Part shown: positions 20,781 to 30,440 of the stretch, piece by piece
Numbering within the stretch: position 1 is the stretch's first letter
How the letters are laid out: each line of letters opens with the position of its first letter
Origin: Escherichia coli
Lineage (GTDB): Bacteria; Pseudomonadota; Gammaproteobacteria; Enterobacterales; Enterobacteriaceae
NCBI RefSeq assembly: GCF_001677475.2
Contig: NZ_CP012497.1
Reading direction: 5' to 3' (one strand)
DNA: 64,000 nucleotides
Position numbers and translations under genes: made by a program
The notes under the pieces: generated by a model
Databases searched by the model: none
What the model was told of the DNA's origin: nothing
Seen by the model: the letters and a program-made list of their open reading frames with translations, nothing else

Positions 20781-22997
20781 ATGAGCTTAAGCGATCAGGT
20801 GGTAATTGCCACCAGCATAGAAACGCTGATCGAGCTGCTTAAGAACCTGCCCGATTATGGGCGGGTTTCGTATGTGGTGACAGCGAAGGGAGACGAGGTA
20901 AAAACAGCGTTTGATATCGTCGATGCCTCAGCTCTTTTGGTATCCAATACTCTGGATGGGAAAATTAATCCTGACTATCCCCAGGAACTTCAGCCGCGCG
21001 ACCGGACCCGCGCATCCAGCCTTCTTCAGGTTAACCAGATATCCAAAGATTTGCGGCCTGCTCAGCTTACCGATTCCGGTTTATCCAGCCATGGCGCGCC
21101 GATAATTGGTGAGGACAATGCCGTTGAGTCAGGTAATGGACGGACCATGGGAATCATTAAAGCCTATCAGGACGGCAATGCGGATCGGTATCGTGAGTAC
21201 CTGATTGAACATGCGACCGAATTCGGCATACGACCTGAAAAGGTTGAATCAATGACGGCTCCTGTATTGGTGCGCCGCCGGTTAACTAAGGTTGACCGCG
21301 TTCAGTTTGCCAAGGACTCAAATATTTCTGATCTTCAGGAAATGGCAGCCAGTGAAAAGGCTTTTGTTGATGCCGACAGCATAACACCGGCGATGATGGC
21401 GCTGTTTAATCCGTCAGAAAGCGGAGATCTGCTTAGCCGCAGTAATGACGCGTTTATTCGCGGATTCATGACGCAAGTTGGTGCCACACAGGCTGCTGGC
21501 CTTGTAACGGAAGATGGGCGACCAACGCGGCAACTTGTTGACCGTATACAAAACGCGATCTTTGCCAAGGCATATAAGGATGCGCGCCTGGTAAGGATGG
21601 TTGCAGAAGAACCTGATCCGGATATGCGTAATGTTCTGACGGCGCTTAATGCGGCAGCCAATGATTTTGTCCAGATGCAGGCTTTATCAGGAGAAGCGCA
21701 CAAGCAGGCTGTGACAACTATTGTTGATGGCATTGAGACAGCGGATAGCCTCGATAAAAAGGCGCTGGCGGCATTGAAAGATGCGGTAGACCTGGTAAGG
21801 CAATCGAAGGAGTCAGGCCAGCATATTACCGATGTTATTGCTCAGGGGGATATGTTCAGCGAAACGGCCCCGGAAGTGAAAGCACTCGCGTTGTTCATCG
21901 TCGCGAATAACCGTAGCGCGAAGCGTATGGCCACCGCCTTTAAGTTGATGGCTCAACGTATCAATGATGAGTTACAGCACCAGGGCCAGGCGCTGGGGGA
22001 TATGTTTGGCGGCGGCGATGTGTCGTTACAGGATATCCTTCGCCAGGTGTCTCAGGAACTGGAAAACGAAGGCATGCAAGGGATATCCGGCGGTCTTTTC
22101 GAGTCCGTTTCCGGCGGTAGTTACAACGGTGTTGCTCCATATACCAGCTTGCTATTACATCGGGCATCCGGCATCAAAGACATTATTCATCTGATCAGGC
22201 TGCTTTCCCGTACAGATCCCCAGGATGAACAGCTTGTACAAGTGCTTGCGCATTTTGTTCGAATGCCTGTTGCCGACGTGAATAAATGGTGCCGATTATT
22301 CGGTATCAGCAATTCGTTACTTCGCGGATTGTTAAATCACGCATCCTCCCTTGGGCGCGACGGCTTTGATGAGATAGCGCAGGCGATACAAAACGGAGAT
22401 ATGCCACCAGCTATTGACTGGTTTTCCATTCGCCCAACCAGGGTGAAAGCATTCCTTAGCGCGGCGCATTCGGCATCACCATTGGCAGAAATGGTTCAGA
22501 GGTTGTCGCTCATATTCACAGACCATACCGCGTTGGGTGATCTGACTCTGGACGAGATGAAAGAAGCCTCCATTCAGTGGGCCGATCAACAAAATGAGGT
22601 TAACTCAGACTTCTTGCCAGCATTCAGGAAGGCCGTTAGTAAAGCGGATGATTCCCGTGGAATTCTGAAGGCATTTAAGGCATTGCAAAGTCGGGTTAAT
22701 AAACATGTCGGTGATATCGATGGGGTAACGGCGGAAGGCAGGGATATTCTTAAAGAGCACGGCATAACGCCAGAGTTTATTGATGAGATCAGGACGGATA
22801 TGCAGCGTGAGGTCGTATCGTCCCTGCAAATTGTAGCCAGAGCGTTGGCGGATGCTAATCCGAAGAGTGCGGCCATTGTTAACCGGGTTATTGGTGATAT
22901 TGAAGCATCGGAGGGCATGGGGGCGCTGAAACTCTTCCTTTCGCGAGCGTTTAATCCTAACGGCAATATTCTCCCTGGCATTATTGGTGAGGTATGA
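20781..22997 (+). pseudogene. ddrB: ddrB-like gene, 5' part, interrupted by IS insertion
   Basis: 738 codons ending ...ILPGIIGEV followed by a stop inside the IS; the reading frame resumes exactly after the IS. Confidence 0.55.
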
Positions 22998-23085
22998 GAC
23001 GACAATAACTCAGTCCGCCTGGCGCCGATTATTCTGGCCGGTTTTGTAACCTGAGTGTCATTTACATGATCCAACAGGAAATGGC

Positions 23086-24585
23086 GTGACGCTCAATACT
23101 TCTCAGGTCAGTTACTATATGACTCAGCGTAAGAAAGGTATAACTCAGCATATCTCGGCCATGAAGGCTGGTATCTCAGTCCGTTCTGGTCGTCGGATCG
23201 AAAAAGGAGAGTGGGCAAAAAACAGTGTTCGGCACTGGCGCACACGCAAAGATCCTCTGGAAGCTGTGTGGGACAGCATGCTTGTTCCTCTGTTGAAAGA
23301 GAGGCCGGCTCTGACACCAACAACTCTACTGGAGATGCTACAGGATAAATATCCCGGCCAGTACCCCAACAGCCTTCGAAGAACAATGCAACGGCGGGTT
23401 CGCGAATGGAAACTACAGTATGGTACAGAGCAGGAGGTCATGTTCCGCCAGCAACATCAGCCCGGCCTGCGAGGCCTGTCGGACTTTACTGAACTGAAAG
23501 GTGTAGTTGTCACCATCGCCGGTAAGTTGTTGGCGCATAAGTTGTATCACTTCCGTCTGGAATGGAGCCACTGGAGCTGGATGCGGGTTGTTCTGGGTGG
23601 TGAGAGCTTCTCTGCTCTGGCTGAAGGCCTGCAGGAAGCCCTCGGACAACTGGGCGGAGTGCCGGTAGAACATAAAACGGACAGCCTGAGGGCAGCATGG
23701 AAACAACAGGGCGAAGATGGACGCCGCGAGCTGACTGAGCGTTATGCTACTCTCTGTCAGCACTACGGAATGCAGGGCGTACACAATAATGCCGGTCGGG
23801 GCCACGAAAATGGCTCGGTTGAAAGTGCCCACGGACATCTGAAAAGGCGTATCTGTCAGGCGCTGATACTGCGGGGCAGTAACGACTTCAGCACCATAGA
23901 AGAATATCAGGCCTTCATCACTCAGCAGGTTATGCGGCACAACCGTAACAATCAGGATCTGGTCAAGGAAGAACGTCTTCATCTGAAACCGCTGCCGCTT
24001 CGTCGCAGTGCTGACTATGATGAGCTGACTGTGAGGGTTAGTCGCAGCAGTACCATCAATGTGAAGCACGTCGTCTACAGCGTACCTTCCCGGCTTGTAG
24101 GTCAACTGTTACGGGTCAGGTTATGGGACGATCGTCTGAGCTGTTACGTTGGCAGCAGCGAGGTCATGAGCTGCCCTCGCGTCAGACCAGAAAAAGGGAA
24201 GACGCGGGCCCGTCGTATCGACTTCCGACATGTGATCGACAGTCTGGCAAAAAAGCCCGGTGCGTTCTGCCATGCAACGCTGAGAAATGACATCCTGCCG
24301 GACGATGAATGGCGGAGGCTGTGGCGTCGCTTATGTAATCATCTGGAGCCCGATATGGCAGGAAGGCTGATGGTACATGCCCTGAAACTGGCTGCAGGAT
24401 ACGACGATATCTCAGTCGTGGCAAAAGGTATGGAGCAGATGCTGAATACCCCGGGAAACGTGGATCTGCACCGGCTGATGCGCTTCCTGGGTATAAAAGA
24501 AAAGGCGTTGCCGGTAGTCAATGTGATACAGCATAACCTGAGCAGTTATGAGCAACTACTGCGTGGCAAGGGAGGTTCGCAGTGA
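23086..24585 (+). CDS. istA: IS21-family transposase IstA
   Basis: 499 aa; N-terminal HTH and integrase-core-like region; followed by overlapping istB. Confidence 0.85.
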   Translation: MTLNTSQVSYYMTQRKKGITQHISAMKAGISVRSGRRIEKGEWAKNSVRHWRTRKDPLEAVWDSMLVPLLKERPALTPTTLLEMLQDKYPGQYPNSLRRTMQRRVREWKLQYGTEQEVMFRQQHQPGLRGLSDFTELKGVVVTIAGKLLAHKLYHFRLEWSHWSWMRVVLGGESFSALAEGLQEALGQLGGVPVEHKTDSLRAAWKQQGEDGRRELTERYATLCQHYGMQGVHNNAGRGHENGSVESAHGHLKRRICQALILRGSNDFSTIEEYQAFITQQVMRHNRNNQDLVKEERLHLKPLPLRRSADYDELTVRVSRSSTINVKHVVYSVPSRLVGQLLRVRLWDDRLSCYVGSSEVMSCPRVRPEKGKTRARRIDFRHVIDSLAKKPGAFCHATLRNDILPDDEWRRLWRRLCNHLEPDMAGRLMVHALKLAAGYDDISVVAKGMEQMLNTPGNVDLHRLMRFLGIKEKALPVVNVIQHNLSSYEQLLRGKGGSQ

Positions 24586-25337
24586 GCAATATCCATCACC
24601 TTGAACATAGCCTGCGTAAACTACGCCTGACACGAGTTGGAGCTGAATGGCACGCTCTGGAAAAACGAGCGCTGGCAGAAGGCTGGACACCATCGCGCTA
24701 TCTTCTGACGCTATGCAATGAAGAACTCCTGTGGCGCGAGAGTGAAAAACTGCGTCGTTATAAAAAGGAGGCCCGGTTGCCAGTTGCCAAAACGCTGAGC
24801 GAATACGACTTCAGTCAGGTGCCGGAACTGAATGGAGCTCAGTTCCGGCAACTCTGTGAAACGACAGACTGGGTTGATGCAGGAGAAAACGTTCTGCTGT
24901 TCGGAGCCAGCGGGTTGGGGAAAAGCCATCTGGCGGCAGCGATCGTGGATGGCGTAGTAGGTCAGGGCTACCGGGCCCGGTTCTACAGCGCAGGAGAGCT
25001 GTTGCAGGAACTACGTAAAGCCAGAGCTCAGTTGAAACTGAATGAGCTGCTACTGAAACTGGATCGCTACCGGGTGATAGTGGTGGATGATCTTGGCTAT
25101 GTCAAACGCGATAGTGCCGAAACGGGTGTGCTGTTCGAGTTAATAGCGCATCGCTATGAACGTGGGAGCCTGGTGATAACCAGTAACCATCCGTTCAGCA
25201 TGTGGGGCAGCATCTTCGTGGATGAGACTATGGCGGTGGCTGCGGCAGACAGGCTGATCCATCACGGATATATGTTCGAACTGAAAGGGGAAAGCTACAG
25301 GAAAAAGACAGCGAAGGCAGTAACAAGCGCGACTTGA
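24582..25337 (+). CDS. istB: IS21-family ATP-binding helper IstB
   Basis: 251 aa; Walker A GASGLGKSHLAAA and Walker B VIVVDDLGY. Confidence 0.85.
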   Translation: MSNIHHLEHSLRKLRLTRVGAEWHALEKRALAEGWTPSRYLLTLCNEELLWRESEKLRRYKKEARLPVAKTLSEYDFSQVPELNGAQFRQLCETTDWVDAGENVLLFGASGLGKSHLAAAIVDGVVGQGYRARFYSAGELLQELRKARAQLKLNELLLKLDRYRVIVVDDLGYVKRDSAETGVLFELIAHRYERGSLVITSNHPFSMWGSIFVDETMAVAAADRLIHHGYMFELKGESYRKKTAKAVTSAT

Positions 25338-25389
25338 TGTCGCCCTGAAGGGTGCGGCCAGTATAGTTGGCGCGAGTCGGCAAAACTAG

Positions 25390-26184
25390 TTGACGTCTAA
25401 TAGTGAGGCTAAAAAGTATGTCAGTGAAGAAGAACTTGAGCAGCTTGACCAACTACTTAAGCGATTCTCATATAACCCGCAGACACGCTGGCAAATGAAT
25501 CAGCGAAGTATGGGTTCGGTCCACGAGAAAGTGTTATCTGCCATGAACAGTGCGATCGCAAACTCATCCGTATCTGAAGAAAAAGCTCTTGAGTGGGCCG
25601 ACTCTTTTATCACAGAAGAAGTGGAAGAAGCCCGCGCTGGACAGAATGGTGGGATAGACCTGCGCAAGGAACTTGCTGATATTTATCGCCTGACCGGCGG
25701 GAAAATATCGACCTTATCAAAGGTAGTTCACCACCAGGGAAGGGCATATGCAAATCTAAATGGTGTTGTTGCTGTCAATTTGAACGATGAAAATGCAAGT
25801 GCACTGTGGCACGAGCTGGGTCATCATCTTGAGTACAGTAACCCTGGTTTGTTAGAGAAAGCCCGGTCATTCCTGAAGGCCAATGTTGAAGGGGATAAGC
25901 CATCTTTCGTCAATATCGGTGGGCGTGGCAAGCCTGAATGGTGCTTCAGATCTCGATTGAGTAATATTTATATGGCGAAGGTATACCCGCCAGCCTCAGT
26001 AAGTAACACCGGGAAAATTCGGCAGAAATCACCGACTATTTCCAAAACGTCAGCAACGGAAGTATTCTCTATGGCTCTTCAGTTGTATCATGACAAAGAG
26101 GCCGCTGCCGCATCACTGATGAATGGTGACGGATTGCTGGAACTGTTATTAGGTGTGGCAAAGGAGCTAAATAATGCAGATTAA
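25390..26184 (+). pseudogene. ddrB: ddrB-like gene, 3' part
   Basis: Frame continues from the upstream part once the IS and one copy of GTGAGG are removed (...GIIGE|AKKYVSEEELEQ...). Confidence 0.5.
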
Positions 26185-26484: not shown

Positions 26485-26510
26485 AAATCCCGCCAATCGG
26501 CGGGATTTTT
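26485..26510. terminator. Rho-independent terminator (bidirectional position)
   Basis: AAATCCCGCC-AATC-GGCGGGATTTTT hairpin with T-run between convergent genes. Confidence 0.5.
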
Positions 26511-26513
26511 ACC

Positions 26514-27608
26514 TCACGAGAAGCTTTTTTCTGATGTCAGCCAACAGTGCTCGTGCAAATCTCTTGGTGGTTTTTCGACAAACGCCTCTTCAGCCACATC
26601 CTGCCAGGGGATTTGTTTAGCCCATTCAGTTATAGCGTTATGGTTTGCCGAGAATAACGGTATTGTATAGGCCTTCAGCCAGTCTAATGTGCTGGAGTTG
26701 TGTTTTTGAGCGTGATGTTTCGCATGGTGTTTGGCGATCACGATCGTAGGCACTACCCATTTACTACCGTCAGTCATTGTGAAGTGCATATTACGGGGAA
26801 CAGATGACTTTTCCATCAACTCCCGAATCCCGGGGAATTTCCCCAAGATCAATCGGCGATATTCATCGCTATTGCGTCCACCAAACTCTTTGGCTTTGAA
26901 TTCAAGATATGCTTCAGAAACGAGAGGTGAATCCTCTGTGTTTAGAGTTATCGCCGTGAAAAAACCAGCAGGATTGTTTTTACTATGGGCCAACCGGTGA
27001 TGCGAATCATAAAAGTACCCTTTCTCGCGTTCCGATGGTTTCGACAGCAACAGCAGGCGCGAGTCATAATTGGTTAAATTGCCAGTTATCACTGCATGAG
27101 CGCGATCGCTGATTTCCGCCGAGTTAATAACGATGAAAAGATCGTGCGGTCCAGTAAAACCAGCCAGAGACTCTTCGTTATTCAGACAATAGGTTATATA
27201 GACGCATCCCCATGTTTCACTGATATGCACCAACCCTTTGTCAGGGTGTATTCTGAAATAATTGCCAAGAAAAGGGTGTTTTTGGGTAACTCGCTCCCAA
27301 TAACGGAACATATAGTCAATTATTGTTTTTCGACTATCGTTAATCGCAGGAGAAACAACCACTGTACGGGAACACGAATACAGTATTGTTTGCAGGATGC
27401 TAATCACTGCCACAATAGAGGTTTCCCCAATACCATGTGGTGTGGTGGCAGTGACTTTGGCTCCGGTGTTCTTTATCGCGTTAATAATTTTTGCTTGATG
27501 AGGTGTTAACTCAATATCAAGCAACTCTTTTGCTGCCAGTTCCCAATTGTCTTTATACCGTTCTATCAGTGCTAACCAGGCAGATTCATTCTGTATACGA
27601 TTAATCAC
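26514..27608 (-). CDS. Terminase-large-subunit (PacB) ATPase-domain paralogue with degenerate Walker A/B; no nuclease domain
   Basis: 364 aa; alignable with the PacB N-terminal 250 aa in this window (e.g. GYFYDSHHRLA...FTAITLNTEDSPLV vs [11 protein letters not shown]...[14 protein letters not shown]); Walker A HGIGETS vs PacB HGTGKSD; Walker B VINSAE vs IIDEAS. Confidence 0.6.
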   Translation of the reverse strand: MINRIQNESAWLALIERYKDNWELAAKELLDIELTPHQAKIINAIKNTGAKVTATTPHGIGETSIVAVISILQTILYSCSRTVVVSPAINDSRKTIIDYMFRYWERVTQKHPFLGNYFRIHPDKGLVHISETWGCVYITYCLNNEESLAGFTGPHDLFIVINSAEISDRAHAVITGNLTNYDSRLLLLSKPSEREKGYFYDSHHRLAHSKNNPAGFFTAITLNTEDSPLVSEAYLEFKAKEFGGRNSDEYRRLILGKFPGIRELMEKSSVPRNMHFTMTDGSKWVVPTIVIAKHHAKHHAQKHNSSTLDWLKAYTIPLFSANHNAITEWAKQIPWQDVAEEAFVEKPPRDLHEHCWLTSEKSFS

Positions 27609-28389: not shown

Positions 28390-29118
28390 TCACTCCACTA
28401 CAAACCAGTCACATGCCAGTAAATCATCCACAGACGGCAACCAAACGCTGTCCATATTTTGTGCATCTTTCAATACAAAATGGTCACCATAAGGAACGTG
28501 AATGCCGTGTAAATTGACGCTTCCAGCGAGAACTAACCAGCAGAATTGCTTTTCGCCTTTCCACTCGCGTCGGGCAACTTTCTTGCCTTCCTTCAACCAC
28601 ATTAGCGCGTCAGAGAAGTCGGCTGCTTCAAGGTCGATTTCTTCTTGTGTGGTAATGATGCCACCGGCAGCAATAGTTACGTCCCTGGCTGTAATGAATG
28701 TCACCCCATTGTGACCTTCAATGCTAAGCGATACCTCATTTTCGAAGAAGTCGTTAGTCCGACTAAAGCCTTCTTCAAATGTTTTTTCTGGTGAATAGGA
28801 CAGATAACCGTCCTCATAACCGAGCAGATAGCCGCCAGTATCTGGTCGGTGTTTTTGCAAAAACGCTGCATCAACACGAACCGTTACGCCTTGGGGGTCC
28901 ATTAATGTGATATAGCCACAAGCAGGGGTATTATCAATCAATGAGATAATCTCGATATCTTTGATTTTCGATGCACTAACGATTTTGTGAGCTTTGTATT
29001 TGGGAAGGAACTTAAAAAGCTCTTTCGTTGCCATTTTATTCATAGTCTTTTCTCTGCTTAAAATTTGATGTATTGCGCCTTCAGGTGGGGAGGAATGTTT
29101 TCCCACCAGCGAAAGCAA
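28390..29118 (-). CDS. Hypothetical protein with C-terminal DUF2829-like (Tad2-like) motif
   Basis: C-terminus [25 protein letters not shown]...[18 protein letters not shown] resembles the DUF2829 signature as I recall it; true start probably an internal Met (MNKMATKEL) near 29040. Confidence 0.4.
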
Positions 29119-29713
29119 TGCCTCGGGGTGTTCTTTTCGTGAAAAGCGCGTGCCATTGCCAGCTTTGGCGTTTTTTAGCGAGTTCGTGCTTTTGTCGGCG
29201 TCTGGACCACCGCTTTTCTTTCAGTCGTTTTTGAATATCGTCGTCAAAGTCCATTGGAGGTTCGTTATTGGCGTTGCTCTGAGGTTTACCGCCACCACTG
29301 TATTGCTGGTGGTTTTGAGGTTGGTTTGATTGCCCCCAGCCATTTGAGGACTGTGAATCGTCACGGCGAGCGCCGATCATTTGCATGGTGCCGCCCTGGC
29401 TGACGATAATTTCCGTCGTGTAACGTTCTACACCGGCGTCATCTGTCCACTTACGGGTTTTAAGTTTCCCTTCGATGTAGACCTGAGAACCTTTTCGTAA
29501 ATACTCACTCGCAATTTCAGCAAGTTTTCCGAACAAAACGACTTTATGCCATTCTGTTTGCTCTTTCTGTTGGTCCGTTTGCTTGTCGCGCCATGATTCA
29601 TTCGTTGCGATGCTGAGTCTTCCGACCGCGCCGCCATTTGGTATATACCTGATCTCCGGGTCTTGCCCCAGGGTACCAATCAGGATGACTTTGTTTACAC
29701 CGCGTTGTGCCAC
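29081..29713 (-). CDS. ssb: Single-stranded DNA-binding protein; annotated ORF has an unusual C-terminal extension
   Basis: OB-fold N-terminus [23 protein letters not shown]..., Gly/Gln-rich linker, acidic tip PPMDFDDDI at residues 152-160; the canonical IPF ending is absent and the frame runs 50 more codons. Confidence 0.8.
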
Positions 29714-29732: not shown

Positions 29733-29749
29733 AAATTAATTAGAGCAAT
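29733..29749. promoter_or_regulatory. C1 operator-like site upstream of ssb
   Basis: Reverse complement ATTGCTCTAATTAATTT vs P1 C1 operator consensus ATTGCTCTAATAAATTT. Confidence 0.5.
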
Positions 29750-29882
29750 AATGTATATCTTTGAAACGTAGCTAACAAGTGATTTGCATTATCCTGTACC
29801 TTCTAAAGGGATCGAGTCAGTCGGTATTGGCTGTGAATGGGTGTTTGTCCTGGAGCGTAAAAAATTCGCTTATGAGGTCTTT

Positions 29883-30440
29883 ATGAAGGGAAAAACAGCC
29901 GCAGGAGGCGGTGCAATTTGCGCTATCGCGGTGATGATTACCATCGTGATGGGTAATGGCAATGTGCGAACCAACCAGGCGGGGCTTGAGCTTATCGGAA
30001 ACGCTGAAGGTTGCCGACGTGATCCATACATGTGCCCGGCGGGGGTATGGACTGACGGGATCGGTAATACACACGGGGTAACGCCGGGTGTGCGAAAAAC
30101 AGACCAGCAAATCGCCGCTGATTGGGAAAAGAATATCCTGATCGCTGAACGCTGTATTAATCAGCACTTCCGGGGCAAAGACATGCCCGATAATGCCTTC
30201 AGTGCAATGACAAGCGCGGCATTCAATATGGGATGCAATAGCTTACGGACCTACTACAGCAAAGCGCGAGGCATGCGAGTTGAAACGTCCATCCACAAGT
30301 GGGCGCAGAAAGGGGAATGGGTGAATATGTGTAACCATCTCCCTGATTTCGTGAACAGTAACGGCGTGCCCCTGCGAGGTTTAAAGATTCGCCGTGAAAA
30401 AGAACGCCAGCTTTGCCTGACGGGACTGGTCAATGAATAA
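29883..30440 (+). CDS. lyz: SAR endolysin Lyz (T4-lysozyme family)
   Basis: 185 aa from internal Met MKGKTAAGGGAICAIAVMITIVMGNGN (SAR-type N-terminal membrane segment); the ORF-track start at 29784 is an upstream extension. Confidence 0.85.
   Translation: MKGKTAAGGGAICAIAVMITIVMGNGNVRTNQAGLELIGNAEGCRRDPYMCPAGVWTDGIGNTHGVTPGVRKTDQQIAADWEKNILIAERCINQHFRGKDMPDNAFSAMTSAAFNMGCNSLRTYYSKARGMRVETSIHKWAQKGEWVNMCNHLPDFVNSNGVPLRGLKIRREKERQLCLTGLVNE

Follow-up and report, generated by a model that had tools for sequence, protein, structure and literature searches.

A 15-nt deletion at the 3' end of a P1-like phage-plasmid ssb gene in Escherichia coli replaces the terminal Pro-Phe of SSB with a 50-residue basic extension

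Introduction

Bacteriophage P1 carries an ssb gene of its own, which is able to replace the host ssb but is not known to be needed for phage growth. Its product, P1 Ssb (SSB-P1, YP_006485.1), and the orthologs in other P1/P7-like elements, such as SJ46 and pMTY1586_IncY, are encoded at the same locus, divergently from lyz and behind the operator Ossb. A different kind of accessory SSB is found in naturally competent Firmicutes, where SsbB, an OB-fold paralog that coats ssDNA but has no canonical tip for recruiting partners, exists alongside a fully functional SSB.

In E. coli SSB, binding of partner proteins by the C-terminal tip (SSB-Ct) is determined mainly by Pro176, Phe177 and the terminal carboxyl group; single changes of P176 or F177 are as damaging as the loss of all three aspartates, and in RecO an arginine anchors the carboxyl end of SSB (PMC3152348). 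The DDDIPF motif mediates essential interactions with many genome-maintenance proteins (PMC5872125). Fusions to the C-terminus of SSB are expected to disrupt these interactions and to need a second, wild-type ssb, and a C-terminal fusion was dominant-negative when expressed from a plasmid (PMC7293020). More generally, for engineered SSB-Ct variants it has been described that partner binding is lost, that a wild-type copy is needed and that a high dose is dominant-negative (PMC3152348, PMC7293020).

Here we describe the ssb gene found in a stretch of 64,000 nucleotides from E. coli contig NZ_CP012497.1 (called the window below). A preliminary description, made from the sequence alone, had pointed out that the SSB encoded there does not end with the usual tip. 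The window protein shares its OB fold, its linker and its acidic residues with P1 Ssb, and 159 of its first 160 residues are identical in the alignment, the sole mismatch being G47D; unlike P1 Ssb, it lacks the terminal Pro-Phe and the stop at this position and carries a basic extension of 50 aa in addition to G47D. It resembles engineered forms of E. coli SSB (C-terminal GFP fusions and the SSB-Ct peptides deltaF177 and P176S (ssb-113)), in which SSB-Ct is likewise blocked or deprived of Pro or Phe. Those, however, are laboratory constructs of the host protein, whereas the window SSB is a natural accessory allele of a phage-plasmid, and its tail is short and basic rather than a folded tag. 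SsbB-type paralogs differ from it in being old and conserved and in having a dedicated role, while the window allele is a recent deletion in a single lineage with a new tail that is not conserved.

Results

The ssb gene and the domains of its product

The ssb ORF lies on the minus strand at positions 29081-29713 and consists of 210 codons and a TGA; like P1 ssb, it begins with GTG (residue numbers given here count Met1). The 210-aa protein matched phrog_44 (E=9e-59). Its residues 6-106 (29396-29698, minus strand) matched the Pfam SSB family PF00436 with E=3.8e-39 and form the OB-fold domain for ssDNA binding and tetramerization, as indicated by the Pfam match, the alignment and the strands of an AlphaFold2 model. 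In SSB proteins W41, W55, F61 and W89 are the conserved aromatic residues that stack on ssDNA, and H56 is the histidine of the tetramer interface. Our alignment shows no variation at W41, W55, H56 and W89 and almost none at F61, and all five residues are kept in the window SSB.

The OB fold is followed by an intrinsically disordered linker of residues ~117-152 (29258-29365, minus strand), identified from the alignment and from pLDDT. Residues 117-152 are rich in Gly, Gln and Pro and identical to the corresponding part of P1 Ssb, and pLDDT is below 50 for residues 114-152. The AlphaFold2 model recovered both the OB fold and the disordered linker with a mean pLDDT of 54.6, that is, with low overall confidence, and was used as a hint on secondary structure only.

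The linker leads into what is left of the acidic tip, PPMDFDDDI (residues 152-160; 29234-29260, minus strand), from which the terminal Pro-Phe is gone. Residue 160 is encoded by ATT at 29236-29234; codon 161 is CAA (29233-29231), and 49 further codons follow before the TGA at 29083-29081. The preliminary description, which had placed the anomaly at 29081-29240, was correct in stating that the protein continues for 50 codons instead of ending with IPF and a stop, and the interval covers the extension, the stop codon and the last codons of the tip. The 210-aa protein has no SSB-Ct, for which D-I-P-F would have to be the last residues of the acidic tip and the alpha-carboxyl group would have to be free, as Pro-Phe-stop is deleted and 50 residues follow. 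DIPF forms the C-terminal end in 87 of the homologs analyzed, and DDDIPF ends all five of the five reference orthologs compared, as well as the protein of a sister contig (see below). A 162-aa product ending in DDDIPF is not encoded in the window. The fold had also been described as normal, together with the linker and the acidic tip. The Pfam match, the linker and the acidic residues are indeed retained, while the OB fold is not fully normal, as it carries G47D.

Nature of the lesion

The last part of ssb and the spacer behind it were compared in alignments with the corresponding regions of P1 (NC_005856), Salmonella phage SJ46, phage Ro157c2YLVW and the plasmids pLH85-a-A and pMTY1586_IncY. 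All these references read GAT ATT CCG TTT followed by TGA or TAA; a short segment that differs among them comes next, and behind it lies a conserved block that begins with AAAAAACGACTGAAAG. At the corresponding position the window reads GATATTC joined directly to AAAAACGACTG, so that the gap falls exactly between GATATTC and AAAAACG. Relative to P1, SJ46, Ro157c2YLVW and pMTY1586, the alignment identifies the lesion as a deletion of 15 nt. Of the Pro codon only the first base is left, and the Phe codon is lost together with the TGA and 6 nt of the spacer. The junction lies between positions 29232 and 29233 on the minus strand.

A sister contig with an intact end was found in IMG/VR through a 33-mer query carrying three spacer substitutions specific to the window. 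This contig, IMGVR_UViG_648276647_000006 (L012 in the following), has a spacer identical to that of the window, including a 1-nt indel near its end, and yet it retains an intact ...GATATTCCGTTCTGAATGTGTAAAAAACG (CCG TTC TGA, i.e. DDDIPF followed by a stop) and Gly47. It follows that the window allele is derived and that it arose by simple deletion of CGTTCTGAATGTGTA, the 15 nt present in L012 and missing from the window, on this very background. The new stop (TGA, 29081-29083, minus strand) is in frame through the 1-nt spacer indel that the window has in common with L012.

The preliminary description had suggested that a 1-nt indel might be found whose correction restores DDDIPF. The alignments with the references and with L012 show a clean 15-nt deletion instead, and shifting the frame by one base at the junction yields ...IFKND followed by a stop, not IPF. 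We also considered that the junction could be a recombination scar or an imprecise boundary of a module. Divergence from pMTY1586 does jump at this point, from ~0.2% within ssb to 4-36% per 100 nt beyond it, across the spacer and into the 5' half of the next gene; this explanation was dropped since L012 has the same divergent spacer next to an intact ssb end.

The G47D substitution

The second change specific to this lineage is the replacement of GGC by GAC in codon 47 (29573-29575, minus strand), a G to A transition at nt 140 that results in G47D. It is absent from P1, SJ46, pMTY1586 and L012, all of which have Gly47, and Gly occupies this position in 109 of the 110 homologs with a readable flanking motif. 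In the AlphaFold2 model, residue 47 is predicted to lie within the hairpin loop between strands 28-42 and 49-61.

Over its first 480 nt, ssb differs from that of pMTY1586 by G47D, a non-synonymous change, and by no synonymous one; comparison with P1 yielded two synonymous differences and the same non-synonymous one. Judging from the alignments, both lineage-specific changes in ssb, the 15-nt deletion and G47D, alter the protein at conserved features. Two protein-altering changes with no synonymous change relative to pMTY1586 would fit relaxed constraint and, equally, positive selection.

The extension and the spacer downstream of ssb

The 50 codons of the extension (29084-29233, minus strand) are translated from what was formerly the spacer downstream of ssb. 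The extension contains 16 Lys and Arg residues versus two Asp and Glu, has a pI of ~12 and a net charge of about +14, and raises the pI of the whole protein from 6.2 to ~10. A helix was predicted by AlphaFold2 over residues 156-191 with low to moderate confidence. An open frame of this length is unremarkable here, since the spacer contains only 15% T and 13% of the shuffles of the 150 nt were free of in-frame stops.

When the tip and the tail together (59 aa) were used as a query, only two tiny clusters matched, of 59 and 64 aa, annotated as 'hypothetical protein, partial'. Both are calls of the spacer ORF itself in NCBI data, one of them with a different ATG context. In P1, SJ46, pMTY1586 and L012 an ATG indeed stands directly after the ssb TGA and in the same frame (TGAATG), opening a basic ORF of 52-60 codons. 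In pLH85-a-A, by contrast, a different 22-nt segment follows the stop, there is no such ATG and the phase is different. The C-terminus of the spacer ORF is frameshifted between alleles, no PHROG match was obtained for the P1-type spacer ORF corresponding to the extension, and the ORF is not called in the RefSeq annotations of the plasmids. We therefore rejected the spacer ORF as a real gene on account of its non-conserved start and phase in pLH85-a-A, the presence of only two tiny clusters and the lack of a PHROG. From these comparisons we conclude that the tail is a chance translation of an apparently non-coding spacer.

Several other properties of the spacer (29044-29233 in the window, ~190 nt; 2074-2270 in L001) were recorded. 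It is open in more than one frame: the GenBank annotation of isaA in P1 runs through it in one frame, and the TGAATG ORF occupies another. The segment after the ssb stop behaves as a variable cassette, being GAATGTGT in the P1 type and AACGAAAGACAAAAT in the pLH85 type. A search of the spacer against Rfam gave no matches at E<=1, and the folding energy of the spacer RNA was not significant (z=-0.21). No terminator-like sites were found on the ssb strand of the spacer; those on the opposite strand were no commoner than in shuffled sequences.

Distribution of the allele

The exact 210-aa protein is present on nine contigs in a public protein collection composed of NCBI data and Logan assemblies. 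Four loci retrieved from four samples (SRR11608754, GCA_002516285.1/NJSK01000031, ERR10434848 and SRR3929499) matched the window with 99.98-100% identity along 6-8 kb. The occurrence of an identical allele in independent assemblies means that the deletion is real and that resequencing of 29200-29250, which had been proposed in the preliminary description, is unnecessary. The locus from SRR11608754 (L005) carries the ssb deletion and lacks a 2.4-kb IS21-family insertion present in the window; hence the deletion is older than the insertion and common to at least two sub-lineages.

We then searched for the deletion more broadly with a 91-nt query centered on the junction, requiring coverage of at least 80%. 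Matches were obtained to 313 plasmids in PLSDB and to 303 E. coli records in RefSeq. In such a search a 100% match in one piece would head the ranking, and no single-piece match was present among the matches listed; the top matches listed were all split in two pieces, with the extra bases between them corresponding to the intact stop region. Among 21 matched phage records, four of which were aligned explicitly, no single-piece span was reported and the deletion was not found. The exact junction 40-mer had zero matches in IMG/VR, GTDB representative genomes and JGI metagenomes. The possibility that an extended C-terminus is a conserved feature of P1-like elements, which would have removed the anomaly, can be set aside, as no reference P1-like genome among the matches listed has the extension. 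The deletion is derived and, as far as these collections indicate, rare and found only in a near-clonal lineage. Since the allele has spread to several isolates, it cannot be strongly deleterious.

Public data contain further alleles of P1-type SSB in which the C-terminus is lost or scrambled (P0007 and P0018-P0025). P0007, a 145-aa protein ending in ...GGGKPF, has lost the acidic tip in frame and is found on 17 contigs from Salmonella; P0022 has 121 aa, and P0018-P0021, P0024 and P0025 have frameshifted linkers. Some of the truncated or frameshifted alleles may be assembly errors. The tip-less ones (P0007, P0021, P0022, P0024 and P0025) fit a dispensable tip.

Neighboring genes and the wider element

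The new ssb stop is separated by the 37 nt of spacer left untranslated (29044-29080, minus strand) from the ATG of the downstream gene (28390-29043, minus strand), whose 217-aa product carries a Tad2-like (DUF2829) domain at its C-terminus. Residues 142-216 of this protein matched PF11195 (E=3.7e-18), the protein also matched phrog_872, and independent gene calls on related contigs place its ATG at 29043. Thus, the extended ssb does not run into the next gene, contrary to the preliminary description: its stop precedes the ATG, and it overlaps only a mechanical ORF extended to a TTG at 29118. The Tad2-like (anti-Thoeris, DUF2829) gene has no counterpart in P1 itself. Its 5' half, especially 28600-29000, is a hot-spot of divergence from pMTY1586, where differences reach 36 per 100 nt, compared with ~1% in the flanks; a donor of this patch was sought in PLSDB, where the best match was only 88% identical.

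The 85 nt upstream of ssb do not differ from those of P1, in which promoters and a C1 operator are annotated; the sequence ATTGCTCTAATTAATTT (29733-29749, minus strand) is the same as that of Ossb (Op21), the C1 operator upstream of ssb in the P1 annotation. The gene thus has the position of a P1 ssb ortholog, between the divergent lyz and the isaA region and with a C1-controlled operator and promoter upstream, and the flanking genes encode a lysozyme and an isaA-like product. In the mechanical call, the lysozyme ORF (29784-30440, plus strand) has 218 codons and a TTG start. The start of Lyz varies with the annotation: related records and gene calls give 185 aa (558 nt), and the SJ46 gene is longer (645 nt).

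The window is collinear with pMTY1586_IncY, and within these 64 kb the element is otherwise largely intact compared with that plasmid. Among the ORFs of at least 120 aa, a ddrB-like gene alone is visibly interrupted by an inserted element, and four others align only partially to pMTY1586, two of these lying at the window ends or at breaks of collinearity. The inserted element is the 2.4-kb IS21-family element (22993-25402), which has an istA-like gene (23086-24585, 499 aa) and an istB-like gene (24582-25337, 251 aa) and splits the 995-aa ddrB-like gene into 20781-22997 and 25390-26184. Like L005, both L012 and pMTY1586 lack this insertion. The string of genes starting with ssb ends with an ORF of 364 aa (26514-27608, minus strand) that matched phrog_5902 and, with a weak resemblance (E=3.6e-9), phrog_2 (terminase large subunit). 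It is absent from pMTY1586 at this position, where window positions 26510-27601 have no match.

Discussion

The gene described here is the ssb of a P1/P7-like phage-plasmid with two lineage-specific lesions, and it probably represents a tolerated defect that is neutral to mildly harmful rather than a designed feature. The 15-nt deletion removes Pro-Phe, the stop and 6 nt, so that translation would run for 50 codons through a T-poor spacer up to a chance TGA. By analogy with E. coli SSB, the 210-aa product should still fold as an SSB and bind ssDNA. The acidic tip, now internal and deprived of Pro-Phe and a free carboxyl group, would not be expected to dock the chi subunit, PriA, RecO, RecQ, ExoI or DnaG. 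That loss of the terminal Pro-Phe abolishes binding of partner proteins had been anticipated in the preliminary description, and the published work on E. coli SSB-Ct and on C-terminal fusions supports this as an inference. The tail, with a charge of about +14, probably neutralizes the adjacent acidic residues and may add some non-specific affinity for nucleic acids.

Persistence of such an allele is probably explained by the functional SSB supplied by the host. Since the 85 nt upstream of ssb are the same as in P1, including Ossb, repression of the phage ssb would be expected in the plasmid-prophage state, with expression confined to induction, a stage at which the cell would contain host SSB as well. 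The allele is therefore probably tolerated thanks to the presence of host SSB and the apparent repression of ssb by C1.

Several other explanations were weighed against the tolerated defect. A sequencing or assembly artifact has nothing in its favor beyond the a priori oddity of the ORF; as the same allele was obtained in independent runs and assemblies from different submitters, and a loss of 15 nt is untypical of read errors, the chance of an artifact is negligible. It is highly improbable that the deletion fused SSB to a genuine small basic protein encoded right after ssb in P1, SJ46, pMTY1586 and L012. The same-frame ATG immediately behind the ssb TGA, the 52-60 open codons in those relatives and the two small ORF calls, one in a different ATG context, would agree with such a fusion, but pLH85-a-A has another 22-nt post-stop segment in a different phase and no such ATG, the end of the ORF is frameshifted between alleles, the ORF belongs to no PHROG family and is uncalled in the RefSeq plasmid annotations, and the T-poor composition accounts for the open frames. 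We regard it as very improbable, too, that the altered SSB is a by-product of an effect on expression, in which translation of almost the whole 190-nt spacer relieves polarity or RNA structure and thereby raises expression of the Tad2-like gene and of the operon genes further downstream. The genes for SSB, the Tad2-like protein, the isaA-like product and the 364-aa protein are co-oriented with tiny gaps or overlaps, the ssb strand of the spacer has no terminator-like site, and the new stop is 37 nt from the next ATG versus ~195 nt in relatives; nevertheless, this argument is purely inferential, and with a z of -0.21 and no Rfam match the spacer RNA presents no obvious barrier to be relieved.

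An adaptive allele, in which masking of the tip by the basic tail together with G47D was selected, either because it evades a defense that senses SSB or ssDNA or because it stops titration of host partners, appears unlikely to us. Escape of phages from DARNA and Hna maps to SSB genes, and the Hna escapers lose negative charge and gain affinity for DNA. The SSBs of Hna- and DARNA-escape phages are, like that of the window, mutant proteins that have an altered charge or affinity for DNA and are maintained in phage populations; they belong, however, to unrelated folds and families (T7 gp2.5, T5, phage 5A), and defense pressure is hypothetical for the window SSB. Moreover, G47D adds a negative charge, the opposite of what is seen in the Hna escapers, and in the DARNA study deletion of the C-terminal Phe of T7 gp2.5 left activation unrelieved. 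Selection would also be in line with the observations that both lineage-specific changes are non-synonymous and located at conserved positions, and that the allele is common to several isolates and older than the IS insertion. On the other hand, two changes provide no statistical power, hitch-hiking suffices to explain the spread within a near-clonal lineage, and the tail is simply what the spacer happened to encode, being identical to the untranslated spacer of L012. We accordingly assign a low probability to the view that a tip-masked, basic-tailed SSB with G47D has been naturally selected to coat ssDNA without recruiting host partners or triggering Hna- or DARNA-like immunity. If it were true, this would be a case of natural defense evasion, or of uncoupling from the host interactome, through capping of SSB-Ct, and masking of the SSB tip would become linked to evasion of defense.

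Under the preferred reading, that of a tolerated defect, an accessory gene has undergone an ordinary mutational event, and the mutant allele, confined to one lineage, is not a new kind of SSB. The main value of the finding is for annotation and quality control: the 210-aa 'SSB' is best interpreted as the product of a P1 ssb allele with a derived deletion of 15 nt, neither as a new architecture nor as a sequencing error. At the same time, it is a natural, circulating counterpart of the laboratory constructs in which SSB-Ct is blocked. Together with the other tip-less P1-type alleles, it suggests that a phage-plasmid can persist in E. coli populations without the docking tip of its SSB.
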